A DNA stretch of 64,000 bases from a bacterium (GCA_037140955.1 JBAXDL010000002.1:28176-92175); one strand, 5' to 3'. Shown: positions 4,015-63,706, numbered from the stretch's first letter. Program-made: numbers and translations. The notes: generated by a model not told the origin, from the letters alone.

Positions 4015-5262
4015 ATGCCAAAAATTCAAATTACCGCCAAGGGTATCAGAGCTGCACTAAAAAAATATACACCATATCAATCACTAACAGAATACATCTG
4101 GAATGGTTTTGACGCTCAAGCATCAACCATTGAAATAAACTATATCGCCAACGAATTGGGAGGAATCGAATCAATTTCAATCAGTGATAATGGCTATGGC
4201 ATTCCACATGAAAAATTGCAAGATAAATTTGAACCAGTTTTTGAATCAAAAAAAGCCCTCGAAAACAAACTCAAAAAAAATCTCTCAGCTATTCATGGAA
4301 AAAACGGAATTGGACGATTGACCTTTTTCACTTTTGCCAGAAATTCATCATGGAAAACAACATATTCCAGCGGCCAAGAAAATTTGACCTATGAAATATA
4401 TGCCAACGCTGAAAACATCAACCTATACACCGGCATCAACGCCACACCAAAAAAGACCACCGAGCAAACCGGCACAACAACAACATTTTCTGGAATTTTT
4501 GGATTGACAGCCTCTCAACTTGAAGAAAAATTTCAAGAATATTTGCTCAAAGAATTTGCCTGGTTTTTGGCACTCAACAAAAAGCGCAATTTTTCAATTC
4601 TAATCAACGGCATTGCTATTGATTTCAAAAATATTGTTGCCGACAGTGAACAATTTGAAATATTGCATCCAGACACACAAACCTTGTTTGAAGTTTCATA
4701 CATCAGATGGGAACAAAGACTCAACAATGAACCATCACGCTATTATTACATGAACGCACAGCATCAGGAGCGCTGGAAAGAGCCAACCGCCATCAAGAAC
4801 AAGGGTGAGCAATTTTATCACAGCCTTTTTGTCGAAAGTTCATATTTTGACTCTTTTGGATTTCAAAGTTCTTCGATTCAAACTCAAGATGCTCTCATTG
4901 TTGGAACCAGGAGCGATTCGCAATTTCGATTCTTGCGAAGAAAATTGGCAAACACTTTGCGCATCAAAAGAAGACCATTTCTCAAGGGTTTTGCTGAGCA
5001 ACTCTTGCTTGAATATGAGCAAAAAAATATTCTTCCAGTTGATGCCAAAGAAAATCTAAAACAAACAATCAGGATTTTATACGAAATGCAACCAAAAATT
5101 TTCAATTCGCTGAATCTTGAACAGAAAAAAATATTAGTCGGCTTGCTTGGAGCGCTCCTTGAAAGCAACAAAAATGAAGCCATTGCAGGACTTCTTGGCG
5201 GAATCATTGAGCTTACCGCTGATGAACAAGCAGAACTTGCCCAACTATTGTTGCCGGTATAG
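4015..5262 (+). CDS. Standalone GHKL (HATPase_c-like, Bergerat fold) ATPase
   Basis: N-box-like EYIWNGFDAQAS, G1 box ISDNGYGI and G2-like HGKNGIGRLTFF near the N-terminus. No kinase dimerisation/His domain and no MutL or topoisomerase C-terminal domains recognised. Confidence 0.55.
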   Translation: MPKIQITAKGIRAALKKYTPYQSLTEYIWNGFDAQASTIEINYIANELGGIESISISDNGYGIPHEKLQDKFEPVFESKKALENKLKKNLSAIHGKNGIGRLTFFTFARNSSWKTTYSSGQENLTYEIYANAENINLYTGINATPKKTTEQTGTTTTFSGIFGLTASQLEEKFQEYLLKEFAWFLALNKKRNFSILINGIAIDFKNIVADSEQFEILHPDTQTLFEVSYIRWEQRLNNEPSRYYYMNAQHQERWKEPTAIKNKGEQFYHSLFVESSYFDSFGFQSSSIQTQDALIVGTRSDSQFRFLRRKLANTLRIKRRPFLKGFAEQLLLEYEQKNILPVDAKENLKQTIRILYEMQPKIFNSLNLEQKKILVGLLGALLESNKNEAIAGLLGGIIELTADEQAELAQLLLPV

Positions 5263-5313: not shown

Positions 5314-6126
5314 TTAAGCCACTCTTGGAGGGCGAGGTCGTATTAATTTGAAGAAATTTTCCCTTGCTTCGTTTTCAAGCAATATAATATTTGCTTTTTC
5401 AAAACCAGCTTTTTTTATTTTACTCTTAAGATTCATGCTTAATCGAAAATTAATGCGAGATTCATCGCGACCAACCCTATTAAGAATAAATTGCCCCATT
5501 TTCATAGCATCAACAATTACTATTGATTCTCCATCAATACAACAGTACTGAGATCCTTTGTCGTTGCGAATGATGCAAATAAAAATTTGCCTCCTATCCC
5601 CCCTACCAAAAATTTTCTTCTTGAAATTAAAGACTGGGTATTGATAGCATAGGATTCCAATAATCAAAAGCACGCCAAGAAGAACCATGATAATCATTTT
5701 ATTTTCCAATTTTCTCTCCTCATTTCCCTGTTTGTGTTGCAATGCATTAACAATGTCAACCTTCTCAATCTTGGTTGCCTCTGTGATTATTTTCTCCTGC
5801 TCCATGGCGGCCAAGACCTCTTCCTTTGAACTTATCCTTGCAGCAACCTTTTTTTTCTCGACAGGTTTTTCAATGACATTCTCAACAATCTTTTTGCCTG
5901 GTGGTATTTCCATTTTTTGACCAGGGAAAATAAGATTTGGATTATTCTTATCTTTCAATCTCTCTTTGTTGAGCTTAATAATAACTTCATGCGAAATGTT
6001 GTAGCGCTTTGCCAATTTCCAGAAGTTATCACCTTTTTTAACAACAATTTCAATGTTTTCAGCAAAAGACATTTCAGCAAAAGACAGACCAAGCATCATC
6101 ACGGCAAACAAGACAAAAATTCTCAT
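5314..6126 (-). CDS. LysM-domain protein with signal peptide and one internal TM helix
   Basis: N-terminal signal-like MRIFVLFAVMMLGLSFA. LysM motif VKKGDNFWKLAKRYNISHEVIIKLN...IFPGQKMEIP. Charged linker, then TM MIIMVLLGVLLIIGILCY. C-terminal about 90 aa not recognised. Confidence 0.5.
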   Translation of the reverse strand: MRIFVLFAVMMLGLSFAEMSFAENIEIVVKKGDNFWKLAKRYNISHEVIIKLNKERLKDKNNPNLIFPGQKMEIPPGKKIVENVIEKPVEKKKVAARISSKEEVLAAMEQEKIITEATKIEKVDIVNALQHKQGNEERKLENKMIIMVLLGVLLIIGILCYQYPVFNFKKKIFGRGDRRQIFICIIRNDKGSQYCCIDGESIVIVDAMKMGQFILNRVGRDESRINFRLSMNLKSKIKKAGFEKANIILLENEARENFFKLIRPRPPRVA

Positions 6127-22643: not shown

Positions 22644-22751
22644 ATATTGATATACTATTGACTTATTAGTGTTATTGTGCTATTATTATACATTGGTATA
22701 ATTTAATTGTACCATATATTCCAAAAAACAACCCAAAAAAGGAGAAAAGAA

Positions 22752-22988
22752 ATGGAAACAAAACAGGAAATAATCGGCGGAAGTTTGGAATTAGTTTGCC
22801 TGATGTCTGTATTATTCTTCGTAGTGTATTGGTTTTCATACACTCATCCAGACTTCAGCAACACAATCATTGGGCAAATTAGCCCTTGGGCTGCATGGGC
22901 AGTAATTGTTCTGGGATTCATCTCTGGATTGACTGGAGAGAGAATCCTAAAAAAGGAAAGTCGGCGCAACAGATTTATTGCGCGATAA
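22752..22988 (+). CDS. Small two-TM membrane protein (hypothetical)
   Basis: AAGGAG Shine-Dalgarno 8 nt before the ATG at 22752. Two hydrophobic helices. One of only two plus-strand genes in the central region. Confidence 0.35.
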   Translation: METKQEIIGGSLELVCLMSVLFFVVYWFSYTHPDFSNTIIGQISPWAAWAVIVLGFISGLTGERILKKESRRNRFIAR

Positions 22989-23055
22989 CATCCATCTGAT
23001 CCCCTTTTCCACATCGTGGAATTGGGGGTCTTTTTTATTTTAAAATTTACAAATA

Positions 23056-23083
23056 TGTCATTCCCGTGAAAACGGGAATCCAG
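23056..23083. repeat. 28-bp inverted-repeat arm (left), itself a hairpin
   Basis: tgtcattcccgtgaaaacgggaatccag. It is the exact reverse complement of 23420-23447. Confidence 0.85.
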
Positions 23084-23085
23084 CC

Positions 23086-23397
23086 CTAATTTATTTCACT
23101 TTTATAATATTCTTTAGCCAAATCTATCCAATCAGGATTTTCTTTTTCAATCAATACTGTCTTCCATTGCCTGTTCCATTTTTTTAATTGCTTTTCCCTT
23201 AGTAATGCAGAGGTTATATCATTTGTGGTTTCGTAATAAACCAATCTACCAACATTATATTTTTCAGTAAAGCCTTTTACTGTTTTATTTTTGTGTTCCC
23301 AAATTCTTTTTATTAAATTACTAGTCATTCCAATATAAAGAGTTCCATTTCTACTACTTGCTAAGATATATACAAAGTAAGTTTTTTGTTGATACAT
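23086..23397 (-). CDS. GIY-YIG nuclease family protein (YhbQ / UPF0213-like, about 100 aa)
   Basis: YFVYILASSRNGTLYIGMTSNLIKRIWEHK has the GIY...YIG motifs plus the conserved R/E. Confidence 0.8.
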   Translation of the reverse strand: MYQQKTYFVYILASSRNGTLYIGMTSNLIKRIWEHKNKTVKGFTEKYNVGRLVYYETTNDITSALLREKQLKKWNRQWKTVLIEKENPDWIDLAKEYYKSEIN

Positions 23398-23419
23398 ATT
23401 AGATTAATTTGTGTCAAAC

Positions 23420-23447
23420 CTGGATTCCCGTTTTCACGGGAATGACA
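23420..23447. repeat. 28-bp inverted-repeat arm (right)
   Basis: ctggattcccgttttcacgggaatgaca. Confidence 0.85.
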
Positions 23448-23571
23448 CATTTTTTAATCACTGAAGCATTGAAAATTGATTGGAAATCGAGATTTGAGAT
23501 TTGAAAATTTAAGCAATATTAAAGCAATAAGCGTAGTAAAAAAAAGACATTGCAATTATTAATTCAGAATA

Positions 23572-24336
23572 TTATGCGGTCAAAATTTCCACTCCTTTTT
23601 CTGTAATCAAAATTGTATTTTCATAGTGTGCAGAAAGTTTCCCATCGGCTGTCACAAAAACCCAACCATCAGAGCCAAGCTCGGTGTGATGAGTTCCGAT
23701 GTTGACCATTGGCTCAATGGCAAGTGTCATGCCAACTTGCAAGAGAAGGTCGCGAAAGCCTTTTTCAAAATAATTTGGAATCTGAGGATTTTCATGCAAG
23801 TTTTTTCCGATGCCATGCCCAACCAAATTTTTGACCACCGAAAATCCAGCATCCTCAACAATTTGCTGCGATGTCTTGGAATATTCACTCAAATTTGCTC
23901 CAGCTTTTAAACTTTTAATACCTTTCCAAAAAGATTTCTCAGTAACTTCGATCAATTTTTTTGCTTCAGCTGAAACTTCCCCCACAGCAAAAGTGCGGGC
24001 CATGTCAGCAAAAAAACCATCCATTTCAAGTCCAATATCAATCTTGAAAACATCCCCATCTCTCAAGAGTGTTTTTTCACTAGGAATTCCATGCACAACT
24101 TCATCATTAATCGAAGCGCAGATGGTTGCTGGAAAAAGATTTTTACCTTCGCCATACCCCTTGAATGCTGGCTTTGCGCCGGCTTGCAAAATCATTTTTT
24201 CAGCCAAAGCGTCAATTTCCATTGTGCTGACACCAACAGCAACTTTTTTTCCAAGTTCGCGCATAACCAAAGCCAAAGCCTTTCCAGCTTTGCGCATGAT
24301 CGCTATTTCATTTTCTGTTTTGATGTGAATACCCAT
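23572..24336 (-). CDS. map: Methionine aminopeptidase type I
   Basis: IKTENEIAIMRKAG... with metal-ligand motifs ...VVHGIP..., ...IDIG..., ...GHGIG... Start taken at the internal Met MGIHIKT. Confidence 0.85.
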   Translation of the reverse strand: MGIHIKTENEIAIMRKAGKALALVMRELGKKVAVGVSTMEIDALAEKMILQAGAKPAFKGYGEGKNLFPATICASINDEVVHGIPSEKTLLRDGDVFKIDIGLEMDGFFADMARTFAVGEVSAEAKKLIEVTEKSFWKGIKSLKAGANLSEYSKTSQQIVEDAGFSVVKNLVGHGIGKNLHENPQIPNYFEKGFRDLLLQVGMTLAIEPMVNIGTHHTELGSDGWVFVTADGKLSAHYENTILITEKGVEILTA

Positions 24337-38184: not shown

Positions 38185-38697
38185 TTATTTCTGAGTATGG
38201 CACAGGTCATTAACAACACATAATTGATAGCAAAAATCAGGATCAATCATTGGCTCTGGTCCAGGCATTCCACCACAATGACCCAAAAGTTTTCTATTTT
38301 CATCATAAACTGTCCATGGCATATCAGTAACATTCCGCGGAGGCATCACCTTGAAATACTTTCCACATTGAAATACTCCACCATTTTCCTTTTTTTCACA
38401 CAGCTCCTCAGTGATATTTTTTTTCTCATTTGGACATGGTGCAAATTCACAATTTTCACCACTTCTACCAACATAAGTTTTTCCATCCTCACAGAGCTTG
38501 GCCTCCTGTGTGCACATGGTGACTTTTTTTTCAGCAGGCACTTGAGCCACTGGCTTTTGAATTTCCAAATTATTGTTTGTTGTATTTTGAATTTTGGATA
38601 TTGATTTGCTTTGCAACCAAAAAATTCCACCAACAACAACTGCGATGAGCAAAATAATTCCAACTGCAATTTCACTGGCAATTTTTTTGTTTGTCAT
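38185..38697 (-). CDS. Hypothetical N-terminally anchored, Cys-rich secreted protein (12 Cys)
   Basis: TM anchor IAVGIILLIAVVVGGIFWL, then an extracytoplasmic domain with CTQEAKLCEDG...CEFAPCP...CEKKENGGVFQCG... Confidence 0.4.
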   Translation of the reverse strand: MTNKKIASEIAVGIILLIAVVVGGIFWLQSKSISKIQNTTNNNLEIQKPVAQVPAEKKVTMCTQEAKLCEDGKTYVGRSGENCEFAPCPNEKKNITEELCEKKENGGVFQCGKYFKVMPPRNVTDMPWTVYDENRKLLGHCGGMPGPEPMIDPDFCYQLCVVNDLCHTQK

Positions 38698-38769
38698 TTT
38701 ATTTTTTTATATATTTATATATAAAAATTATACCACAAAAAAATGATATTCTAAAAAAATGTGTAGAAC

Positions 38770-38797
38770 CTGGATTCCCGCCTTAGTGGGAATGACA
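38770..38797. repeat. Third (solo) copy of the GIY-YIG-associated hairpin repeat
   Basis: ctggattcccgccttagtgggaatgaca. It shares ctggattcccg...gggaatgaca with the 23420-23447 arm; only the loop differs. Confidence 0.75.
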
Positions 38798-38842
38798 AAA
38801 ATAAAAAAACAGCCCCTTGCGAGACTGTTTTTGAAAAGTGTT

Positions 38843-39313
38843 TTATGCTTGATGCGATAATGATAAGTTTTCCAGCTTCACAACACGTTTTTCAAGTCTT
38901 TCAAATTCCTGGGCATCCACCTTGCGTTTGAGCTCAAATTTCACTTCGACCATATCATCCTGCAGCCTGTCTATCTTGGTTTCAACCAGTTCAAGTTTAT
39001 CATCAATTCCATCTAGCCTATTGTCTATGCCATCAAGCCTATTGTCGATTCCATCAAACCTACGGTCAATACCATCGAATCGCTTATCGATTGCCTCGAA
39101 TTTTTGATCAACATTTTCAAATTTAATCTCCATGCTTTCTGCAAGCGTTGAAAGATTTTCATCAAATCTCTCCATTAAGACACCCAATTGCTCGAATTTC
39201 CTATTAGTATTTTCAGATATAGCATTTAAGGACACATCAAATCTTTCAATCATCAAGCCAACCTCATTTGCAGTAAATGTTTTTTCTTCAGTTTTGTTTG
39301 ATTGTTTTTTCAT
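38843..39313 (-). CDS. Coiled-coil protein with tandem heptad repeats (RFDGID x5)
   Basis: KRFDGIDRRFDGIDNRLDGIDNRLDGIDDKLE, encoded by 21-bp tandem DNA repeats at about 39009-39092. Confidence 0.5.
   Translation of the reverse strand: MKKQSNKTEEKTFTANEVGLMIERFDVSLNAISENTNRKFEQLGVLMERFDENLSTLAESMEIKFENVDQKFEAIDKRFDGIDRRFDGIDNRLDGIDNRLDGIDDKLELVETKIDRLQDDMVEVKFELKRKVDAQEFERLEKRVVKLENLSLSHQA
39009..39092. repeat. 4 x 21-bp in-frame tandem repeat within the coiled-coil gene
   Basis: ccatctagcctattgtctatg / ccatcaagcctattgtcgatt / ccatcaaacctacggtcaata / ccatcgaatcgcttatcgatt. Confidence 0.8.
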
Positions 39314-39422
39314 ATGTTTATTGTTTAGTGAAGTGAGAGAAATGAAATAGCAATTTCATTTCCGAGCGAACGACAACAACAAGATTCCTCTTATTTTATA
39401 ATTATAAATCGACTGCGTCAAA

Positions 39423-39716
39423 TCAAGATAGATAAGTTTTTGCTTCTTCAAAAGTTGAAATGAAACTTGAAACATGGTCACCAAAGATCATCATGCGATT
39501 GGTCACTTTTTCACCTTTTTTGTTCTTATATAAATCAGTTATCGACAAACAATTGTTGCCATTACTGGTGAGTTTTACATCAAAGAAATAATTTTTGCCG
39601 CCAGCGCGCAGCAATTTTGAAAAAACTCTGTTTTGAACTTTGTCCTGAATTGGCATTTGCAATTGAGCTTGATTTTTGCTCTTTGCTTGATTTTTGATTT
39701 GATTTTGTTTTTGCAT
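39423..39716 (-). CDS. Bacterial PUR-alpha-like (DUF3276-type) nucleic-acid-binding protein
   Basis: VFSKLLRAGGKNYFFDVKLTSNGNNCLSITDLYKNKKGEK resembles the GRRTYFFDV...LTITE PUR repeat. Gln/Lys-rich N-terminus. Confidence 0.45.
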   Translation of the reverse strand: MQKQNQIKNQAKSKNQAQLQMPIQDKVQNRVFSKLLRAGGKNYFFDVKLTSNGNNCLSITDLYKNKKGEKVTNRMMIFGDHVSSFISTFEEAKTYLS

Positions 39717-61984: not shown

Positions 61985-63706
61985 TTACAAGGCTGTTTCT
62001 TGCCATTTTTGAATTGAAATTGGAAGTGGACAATACAATGTTTCACTCGTAGAAGAGCAAGGCACACCACAGTCTGCATTTGCTGGATACGTTGTTCCAC
62101 CACCGCATGTAGTATCCGTTTTAGCACACATTGGTTTAGCAGTTGTAATTGTTTTTCCTGCTTTATCAGTAGTATTGCAAACAGCGCCAGTTGAAGTCAT
62201 AGGACAAATATATGAATATACTGGAATGCAAGTCTTTTTTGCCGTGCAACTTGCTGGAGAACCACCGCTTTTTCCGTTGCATGTCCAAGACCAAGGTCCA
62301 GATCCTGATACTGCTGGAGTTGAACCATCACCACAGAGACCAACAGGATCAGCTGAAGAAGGAGGGGAAAAAAGATAATCATTGCCTGGATTTGAATATG
62401 AACCACAAACTCCATCTACCGGCGAATTTATCCCAACTGTGACACTTTGATTAACAATGGAAATATTCGATGAATTCAAACACTCCATATTGTAAGTTGT
62501 TGGTACTGTTATGCCACTAAAAATACTTGAACCAGCTGCTGGATCAGGAGCCCAGCCGAGTATTGAACCATAACTATCTATAAACCTACAAGAGGCAGTA
62601 TTGGTTGATAACCATGAAATTGTCGAAGACCCTCCCTGATCAACACTAGTCGGAGACGCTGTCAATGAAAGTGTTGGAGTAGTGCAAGATGAATAATCAA
62701 GAGTTGCAAGTGAACCAGTACCACTATGACAAGTGCAGTCAACAACATAACCAATACCTGGTGGATCTAGAAAGGTTGCGCAGCTAGCATCTGCAGATTC
62801 ATATGGTGCAGCAACCTTAGTATTGTTGTACAAACTAGAACATCCTACCCCACAAGTATACTTTTTGTTGGCAGAGCAAGAGGTTCCACTGCAGGTCCAG
62901 GACCAAGGTCCAGATCCTGATACCGCTGAAGCTGTGCCAGATGAACAAAAGTTGGCAGTTGGAGCAGAGAGGAAATATTGACCATTTGATGAGCCGCATC
63001 CTGATTGAGTTGCAGAGCAACTTGCAGCTGCTCCCCCATATTGTCCAAGGCAACTCCAAGACCAAGCACCAGAAGCTGAAGCTGTGCCAGCTTGGCAAAG
63101 ATTAGAGGTTGGAGCTGACGGGAATGATTGACCATTAGCAGAACCACAGACACCAGGAATTGGGTCATGACACTCACCACCGCCAGAACTAATAGTGCCA
63201 TTATCGCATGACATATAAGTAAAGCCAACATTTGAATTTATAGCATTATCAAATTTTCCAGAAAAATTATAGGCCACTTCCATATTTAAGATAACACCAC
63301 ATTGTTTTGGGTTATCAGATGTTCCCCAATAAGAAGAATAGAAAAAACAATTCCTATTTGCATAGCAAGATGCATCTGAACCACCATTTTTTCCAGCACA
63401 TGTCCAATTCCATGTTCCAGCAAAAGAAACTGGTACCCATGAACCATCTCCACAAAGATTTGAACCTGGTGAATTTAAAAATGATCCACCATGTGATGAG
63501 CCACAAGAACCATTGATTTTTTCATAAGCAATACATGCAGTTTCATTGCTTGGACTAGCTACTGTTTTACATCCCCATTTCCATGCGCCAGCAGGAGAAC
63601 CTGCGACATATGAAACAGCAGTACTTATCTTACTTCCAACAGCACAAAATTCTTGACCCATGATTGGAATTGAAGTTCTCATTGTCCCATCAGCTGAACC
63701 ACACAC
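61985..63706 (-). CDS. Large secreted Cys/Gly/Ser-rich protein built from a roughly 48-aa repeated module (C-terminal part)
   Basis: Repeated module CGS.NGQ.F.SAPT.NLC..GTASA.SG.GPWSW.C.G..GG.AASC.A, at least five copies. Confidence 0.5.
   Translation of the reverse strand: MCGSADGTMRTSIPIMGQEFCAVGSKISTAVSYVAGSPAGAWKWGCKTVASPSNETACIAYEKINGSCGSSHGGSFLNSPGSNLCGDGSWVPVSFAGTWNWTCAGKNGGSDASCYANRNCFFYSSYWGTSDNPKQCGVILNMEVAYNFSGKFDNAINSNVGFTYMSCDNGTISSGGGECHDPIPGVCGSANGQSFPSAPTSNLCQAGTASASGAWSWSCLGQYGGAAASCSATQSGCGSSNGQYFLSAPTANFCSSGTASAVSGSGPWSWTCSGTSCSANKKYTCGVGCSSLYNNTKVAAPYESADASCATFLDPPGIGYVVDCTCHSGTGSLATLDYSSCTTPTLSLTASPTSVDQGGSSTISWLSTNTASCRFIDSYGSILGWAPDPAAGSSIFSGITVPTTYNMECLNSSNISIVNQSVTVGINSPVDGVCGSYSNPGNDYLFSPPSSADPVGLCGDGSTPAVSGSGPWSWTCNGKSGGSPASCTAKKTCIPVYSYICPMTSTGAVCNTTDKAGKTITTAKPMCAKTDTTCGGGTTYPANADCGVPCSSTSETLYCPLPISIQKWQETAL

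Follow-up and report, generated by a model that had tools for sequence, protein, structure and literature searches.

The region 23056-23447 of a bacterial DNA stretch of 64,000 nucleotides (the whole analysed stretch, hereafter the window) raises the question of what kind of element is formed by one small GIY-YIG nuclease gene and the two inverted repeats that enclose it. The initial annotation described perfect 28-bp inverted repeats bracketing the gene, and this is what is found: the plus strand carries the 28-nt sequence TGTCATTCCCGTGAAAACGGGAATCCAG at 23056-23083 and, with 0 mismatches, its reverse complement at 23420-23447, and a repeat-pair match of this kind was counted 0 times in 100 dinucleotide-preserving shuffles. 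The single ORF enclosed by the two copies encodes a 103-aa GIY-YIG protein (23086-23397, minus strand). The answer proposed here, to which a probability of about 0.85 is given, is that the region is an SRM-ssn-SRM module of the Ssn family, a known system published in 2025.

Protein and repeats of the Ssn type

Ssn is a family of site-specific single-stranded DNA (ssDNA) endonucleases with flanking hairpins designated NTS or SRM (Chenal et al., Nat Commun 2025, PMC11893778). In the Chenal et al. study the Neisseria dRS3 palindrome ATTCCC-N8-GGGAAT was recognized as the central part of a longer repeat with a defined orientation, the NTS, CGTCATTCCCGCGMAVGCGGGAATCYRG, and SsnA was characterized as a 94-aa single-domain GIY-YIG protein (CDD cd10448, GIY-YIG_unchar_3), the cutting activity of which is abolished by Y6A, Y17A and E64A in N. 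meningitidis numbering (PMC11893778). The experimental enzymes are those of Neisseria and Wolbachia; binding of the hairpin is restricted to ssDNA and to the NTS strand, reading (C/T)GTCATTCCC...GGGAATC, and the cut is placed in the non-conserved flank, 5' of the hairpin by a few nucleotides (PMC11893778). The GTC 5' of the palindrome is the most important element for cleavage and the C just 3' of it for binding, the Neisseria enzyme is inactive on an altered palindrome despite the retained hairpin, and specificity varies between Ssn homologues (PMC11893778). Among ssnA homologues across phyla, with E<1e-10 as the criterion of homology and HGTCWYN(0-2)YYVSBRHN(0-5)WNVSBRGN(0-2)RNCYNB as the SRM search pattern, at least one SRM was present in 71% and SRMs on both sides in 42% (PMC11893778).

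The product of the window gene is predicted from PF01541 and BLASTP to be an endonuclease of this kind. PF01541 matches residues 7-79 with E=4.6e-15 and no other domain was found in the 103-aa protein, which corresponds to the single-domain architecture of the family, about 94-105 aa long and lacking an additional DNA-binding domain. The reference for SsnA was a 94-aa ORF from NZ_CP119140.1, found by tblastn against PLSDB in two N. gonorrhoeae chromosomes; its length, residues and NTS context point to it being the SsnA orthologue, while the assayed protein is that of N. meningitidis. With this gonococcal ORF the window protein shares 59% identity over 85 aa in BLASTP at E=4e-36, well inside the published limit, and its Y10, Y21 and E68, which align with Y6, Y17 and E64 of the Neisseria protein, are invariant in 20 homologues. 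In NZ_CP119140.1 (locus L105, 1880787-1884041) the ssnA orthologue stands amid nine strict NTS copies within 3.2 kb, mostly of alternating orientation and about 75-155 nt apart. The N. gonorrhoeae chromosomes of 2.17 Mb are filed as plasmids in PLSDB.

The label "YhbQ-type", which the gene carried in the initial annotation, has to be given up. The solved UPF0213 members 1YWL and 1ZG2 match the window protein only marginally (E=0.09-0.15, vs E<1e-35 for Ssn homologues), and from E=4e-36 to the SsnA orthologue together with E of about 0.1 to UPF0213 it follows that the Ssn label is right and the YhbQ-type label wrong. The UPF0213/YhbQ proteins (E. coli YhbQ, EF2693 1YWL, BH0048 1ZG2) resemble the window protein in being small stand-alone GIY-YIG proteins of about 100 aa; we know of no report of their association with hairpin repeats. 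The assignment to GIY-YIG homing endonucleases of group I introns was also rejected, TIGR01453 reaching 20.6 bits vs the cut-off of 56.05 and covering residues 8-42 only; the C-terminal DNA-binding region typical of homing endonucleases is absent from the window protein, which ends at 103 aa. The GIY-YIG catalytic domain and insertion polymorphism are shared with I-TevI-type homing endonucleases, but unlike these the window protein has no DNA-binding domain and is found in neither an intron nor a phage, and the Ssn family acts on ssDNA hairpins and not on a homing site in dsDNA.

The published SRM pattern, coded as a regular expression and run on the 64-kb window, gave 3 matches vs 0.07 expected per shuffled window, namely both flanking repeats and a non-hairpin match at 62231; SRMs thus stand 22 nt upstream and 2 nt downstream of the ORF. 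At 25 of 28 positions the window repeat has the consensus nucleotide of the Neisseria NTS; of the three deviations, two (C12 to T and G17 to A) are compensatory, replacing a C-G by a T-A stem pair; since they are the two sides of one pair, the 8-bp stem is kept. In the ssDNA fold of each flanking copy (-7.8 kcal/mol, z=-3.4 to -5.1), ATTCCCGT pairs with ACGGGAAT over 8 bp around a GAAA loop, by which the 7-bp stem given initially is corrected. The core palindrome is identical to that of the Neisseria dRS3 and NIMEs, and tGTC-ATTCCCGTGAAAACGGGAAT-Ccag, including the GTC and the 3' C, is present in all three copies in the window. The window hairpin differs from the Neisseria NTS by its T-A closing pair and its GAAA loop, and the activity of the enzyme on it is a prediction.

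The upstream copy (23420..23447, minus strand), assigned from exact match, SRM pattern and ssDNA fold, has the sequence TGTCATTCCCGTGAAAACGGGAATCCAG on the coding strand, where 22 nt separate its end from the ATG. In the spacer between them (23398..23419, minus strand) a Shine-Dalgarno-like sequence is not evident; in close homologues the length of this spacer is kept (22-24 nt), its sequence beyond GGTT is not. The downstream copy (23056..23083, plus strand), assigned by the same three kinds of evidence, has the NTS orientation on the plus strand, opposite to that of the upstream copy, and follows the TAG at a distance of 2 nt, as in all close homologues. A promoter-like site TTGACC-17-AATAAT at 23555..23583 on the minus strand, identified by consensus match in a window where the number of such sites is not above that in shuffles, overlaps the 3' end of map and might tentatively be considered to drive transcription of the SRM and ssn.

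Judged from sequence, the window protein and its repeats are members of the Ssn family: they have in common with the published system (PMC11893778) a single-domain GIY-YIG protein of about 100 aa, the aligned Y/Y/E residues and 28-nt SRM-matching hairpins on both sides. The early suggestion of a nuclease with its own recognition hairpins is in agreement with this, being supported by experiment on the family (PMC11893778) and by the homology, domain architecture and flanking SRMs of this locus. One difference from published Ssn systems is the host, an uncultured Patescibacteria-like bacterium, from a group absent from the main text of PMC11893778. A literature search for follow-up work on the Ssn paper found none, and a search combining GIY-YIG with "repetitive extragenic palindromic" returned no papers.

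The third copy of the repeat, reported initially between tuf and fusA, is real and lies in that interval; it is, however, degenerate and situated between two small non-ribosomal ORFs. This solo copy (38770..38797, minus strand, TGTCATTCCCACTAAGGCGGGAATCCAG on that strand) retains the outer TGTCATTCCC...GGGAATCCAG (10+10 nt) intact, all 5 mismatches being within the inner stem and loop; its hairpin is weak (-3.6 kcal/mol, z=-1.25) and the strict SRM pattern does not match it. It sits between ORFs of 170 and 156 aa, which together with a DUF3276 ORF lie in the tuf-fusA interval. The three non-ribosomal ORFs inserted between tuf and fusA (38185-39716) are the 170-aa one without significant Pfam match, the 156-aa one with weak coiled-coil matches and the 97-aa DUF3276 one. 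Besides the flanking pair and 38770-38797 the window holds no further copies of the 28-mer with up to 8 mismatches; ssn remnants were searched for near the solo copy, and a second ssn-like gene throughout the 64 kb, and none were found.

Layout of the module among homologues

At E<=1e-3 the window protein has 3014 homologues, and the top ones, 70-83% identical, come mostly from Moranbacteria, Parcubacteria and other candidate-phyla genomes, because of which the host is called Patescibacteria-like. A scan of one genome per species gave at least 586 confirmed ssn loci, the best 80 of which were analysed with 5 kb on either side. These best 80 loci, with 54-72% identity, belong to Patescibacteria, Planctomycetota, Chloroflexota, Cyanobacteria, Legionella, Rickettsia, Desulfobacterota and others.

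The initial annotation had proposed to check whether other GIY-YIG copies are flanked in the same way, and many of them are: an SRM lies within 200 nt of the gene in 51 of the best 80 loci and on both sides in 26, at a median distance of about 25 nt, and homologues at 57-72% identity carry SRMs. The nearest upstream SRM has the orientation of the coding strand in 31/38 loci and the nearest downstream one is inverted in 33/39, so that the inward-facing layout of the window is the usual one. SRM density in the best 80 loci is 2.94/kb near the gene vs 0.078/kb in the rest of the 5-kb flanks, and this 38-fold enrichment speaks against a ubiquitous repeat unlinked to GIY-YIG genes and without insertion polymorphism, the possibility that the annotation itself had named as fatal to its view. 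The perfect identity of the two window repeats is incidental and not canonical, since only 4 of 19 inward-facing SRM pairs have identical copies, and in L092, L102 and L103 the loops differ between the two ends. The strict Neisseria NTS consensus was found in 5 of the best 80 loci.

Several homologues (P0063, P0080, P0113 and P0114) are annotated with the C-terminal tails GFPLSRE, DWMPDQVGHD and ...HSCEGRNP. GFPLSRE is the in-frame reading of the flanking hairpin repeat; the other tails, DWMPDQVGHD and ...HSCEGRNP, we take, judging from the peptides themselves, to be likewise repeat-encoded. Such tails look like ORF calls that run into the repeat and expose other hairpin variants.

The module as an inserted unit and the question of mobility

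A metagenome scan with the adjacent Map protein yielded eight relatives, and in five of them (L084, L085, L086, L087 and L089) the order (secY)-adk-map-ruvX(-GT2-galT) is kept. The search for empty sites, also proposed initially, thus had a positive outcome, for in these five syntenic map-ruvX loci neither ssn nor an SRM was found; the map-ruvX gap is about 75 nt in L085 and about 20 nt in L089. L084 retains a small opposite-strand membrane ORF with its hairpin, the counterpart of window 23003-23040, and its alignability with the window resumes about 4 nt beyond the distal SRM. In the window the small predicted membrane ORF occupies 22752-22988 on the plus strand, opposite to ssn, and is followed by a hairpin with a T-run at 23003-23040; being conserved in L084, this ORF and hairpin are part of the ancestral map-ruvX spacer and do not belong to the module. 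As ruvX directly follows map in relatives too, the break of the ribosomal operon predates the module, and the infA-rpmJ-rpsM continuation that the initial annotation had missed after map is neither expected there nor displaced.

Elsewhere the closest homologues (77-83% aa identity), each co-directional with the gene upstream of it, have different neighbours: a 103-aa ORF and an AA_kinase-domain gene stand on either side of P0001 and P0008, a pilin-like gene and nusA on either side of P0010, and P0003 follows pth and lies upstream of dprA-topA. All of them are built as SRM, 22-24 nt, ORF, 2 nt and inverted SRM. In a multiple alignment of the four contexts pairwise identity is 100% in the upstream SRM, which is the same in the cassettes of all four, 76% in the interior and 83% in the downstream SRM, and outside the unit it is 25% in the 40 nt before and 37% in the 40 nt after. 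Homology starts at TGTCA and ends at TGACA, the outer ends of the repeats, and terminal inverted repeats are therefore placed, as in an insertion sequence, at the exact limits of the unit. Because homology stops at TGTCA...TGACA and syntenic relatives are without the module, it behaves, as the comparison shows, like a discrete unit that was inserted in the map-ruvX spacer of this Patescibacteria-like lineage; related modules stand at other intergenic sites.

Gene-less pairs were also observed. In L086, a relative without ssn, a gene-less 100-nt element TGTCAT...ATGACA with two inward-facing SRM-like hairpins (4770-4869) begins 4 nt past the stop codon of map, in the very intergenic site that the module occupies in the window, and could be a non-autonomous derivative or a remnant. 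In L102 a gene-less inward-facing pair of another variant (TGTCATCCTGAAC.../TGTCATGCTGAAT...) lies at 5396-5481, 2 kb downstream of its ssn module.

The initial view of a landed mobile cassette stands as far as insertion is concerned, with five empty relatives and three other contexts, while active mobility by the nuclease is unproven. It is possible, though in our estimate rather doubtful, that the module moves autonomously as an IS-like or homing-type element, in which Ssn serves as the mobility nuclease, the SRMs as terminal inverted repeats and the gene-less SRM pairs as non-autonomous derivatives like those of RAYT/REP-BIME; this explanation overlaps the preferred one. It is favoured by the homology limits at TGTCA...TGACA over four contexts, the empty sites in syntenic relatives, the gene-less inward pairs of L086 and L102, the occurrence of 57-72% identical proteins across very distant phyla and the IS-like architecture on which the authors of PMC11893778 themselves remarked, an IS-like nature of NTS-ssnA-NTS being their hypothesis.

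Several facts weigh against autonomous mobility. No target-site duplication was seen, a search at the cassette ends giving no consistent direct repeat in the flanks. Each variant occurs at one place and a near-identical second copy was not seen: the window has a single ssn, the exact window protein is in 3 contigs, all of which show one place, and of the 16 contigs with P0010 all 6 places shown are pilin-ssn-nusA. Cassettes of different contexts are only about 76% identical, which places any moves far in the past. Phages and plasmids seldom carry members of the family, with no ssn in GenBank phages, 18 of 2.9 million contigs in IMG/VR and 33 records in PLSDB, several of these being chromosome-sized (at least 2 of N. 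gonorrhoeae, about 2.17 Mb) or very large replicons. As for chemistry, we know of no strand-transfer or ligation activity of a 103-aa GIY-YIG domain, which counts against this explanation, nor, to our knowledge, is any covalent intermediate or strand-transfer reaction known for Ssn. Moreover, the Neisseria enzyme cuts only one strand orientation, so that inverted sites would be cut on opposite strands, unlike in IS200/IS605 excision. In some loci the flanks of the cassette are weakly inverted-repeat-like (8/11 nt in the window), which may be chance in AT-rich sequence.

Two established classes of element were considered for the module. A classical insertion sequence was rejected, as inverted termini are present and target-site duplication and near-identical copies were not found. 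The resemblance to REP/BIME-RAYT systems (IS200/IS605) consists in a single-copy nuclease gene between inverted hairpin repeats recognized as ssDNA and in solo and paired gene-less repeats elsewhere; unlike RAYT, the nuclease is a GIY-YIG and not an HUH/Y1 enzyme, and its sites are on opposite strands instead of hairpins recognized on the same strand. Membership in IS200/IS605 or RAYT-REP was rejected on these two grounds, the GIY-YIG protein and the inverted SRMs that put the cleavable orientation on opposite strands.

That the hairpins are ordinary transcription signals (a terminator, an mRNA stabiliser or an attenuator) of a housekeeping gene, made identical by local duplication and having nothing to do with the specificity of the nuclease, is very improbable. 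The downstream copy does occupy a terminator-like place 2 nt past the stop, and the upstream copy would be in the 5' UTR if transcription began at the promoter-like site at 23583. However, a T-run follows neither hairpin, the coding-strand sequence after the downstream one being GACATATTTGTAAA, a terminator scan of 22650-23650 reports neither SRM, and no Rfam match was found at the SRMs. The non-palindromic TGTC and CCAG flanks, needless for a generic hairpin, are conserved across phyla, and family members bind and cut the same motif as ssDNA, not RNA (PMC11893778). An invertible segment or an assembly artefact is scarcely credible: the Logan contig L002 (1-1749, window 25168-23420, 100% identical) does end exactly at the inner edge of the map-side SRM, perhaps owing to a heterogeneous population or to a branch of the assembly graph at the repeat, but the same arrangement was independently assembled in ENA contigs, in L003 and in many homologous loci, and the two repeats of relatives are often non-identical.

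Putative function and significance of the module

In the preferred reading the Ssn nuclease and the two inward-facing copies of its cognate hairpin would constitute one module. Since the sites are inverted, the predicted cuts fall on opposite strands immediately beyond the two ends of the module, the minus-strand one probably near 23448-23455 and the plus-strand one near 23048-23055. Whichever strand becomes single-stranded, in transforming DNA or in replication and repair intermediates, would thus be severed right 5' of the module; opposite-strand cuts of this kind are a misfit with IS200/IS605-style single-strand excision.

In N. meningitidis transformation by NTS-bearing DNA is reduced through Ssn (PMC11893778). 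By analogy with Neisseria, the present role of the window module may be resident ssDNA restriction and modulation of recombination, and the module is probably carried on, or descended from, a selfish IS-like element. A Neisseria-like genome-wide or transformation-restricting role in this host is doubtful and only weakly suggested, because just 3 SRM copies are present in 64 kb, unlike the hundreds of repeats in pathogenic Neisseria. Gene-less units bounded by inverted copies, as in NIMEs, are found in L086, in L102 and around the N. gonorrhoeae ssnA; in contrast to dRS3/NIMEs, the window has no arrays and belongs to an entirely different phylum.

A comparison of strains touches on the possible effect of the module on recombination. 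L003, one short contig from another sample, was compared over 38-1251 with window 23004-24336: map is 90.3% identical, while the module and 52 nt beyond it are 98% identical. Third-codon-position differences amount to 59/255 in map (23%) vs 3/104 in ssn (3%; Fisher p=4e-7), and selection at the protein level is no explanation for this gap. It is exactly at the map-side SRM that divergence drops. L003 lacks the 124 nt by which map and the SRM are separated in the window; its map-side SRM begins 5 nt after the map stop and carries two stem-breaking substitutions. Tentatively, this step fits a recent recombinational exchange of a tract starting at the SRM; a start of this kind is expected from the published model, in which the cut in incoming ssDNA lies immediately 5' of the hairpin.

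The main value of the analysis is correct annotation, by which a GIY-YIG/YhbQ-like gene with inverted repeats becomes an Ssn nuclease with its cognate hairpin sites. To the knowledge of the family is added that Ssn, in exactly this module layout, is abundant in candidate-phyla (Patescibacteria) genomes, and that empty sites, homology limits and gene-less pairs at the same site give comparative support to the IS-like NTS-ssnA-NTS idea. Each ssn/SRM pair is also a candidate enzyme and site for ssDNA tools, here with the GT-GAAA-AC hairpin variant. A further-reaching proposal, which we regard as unlikely at present, is that SRM-ssn-SRM, with its ends exactly at TGTCA...TGACA, is genuinely mobile in Patescibacteria, inserting just downstream of housekeeping genes and leaving gene-less pairs, and that Ssn cleavage may set the ends of recombination tracts. 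If true, this would provide the first footprint of Ssn activity in a natural population, and evidence for a GIY-YIG-driven REP/RAYT-like system.
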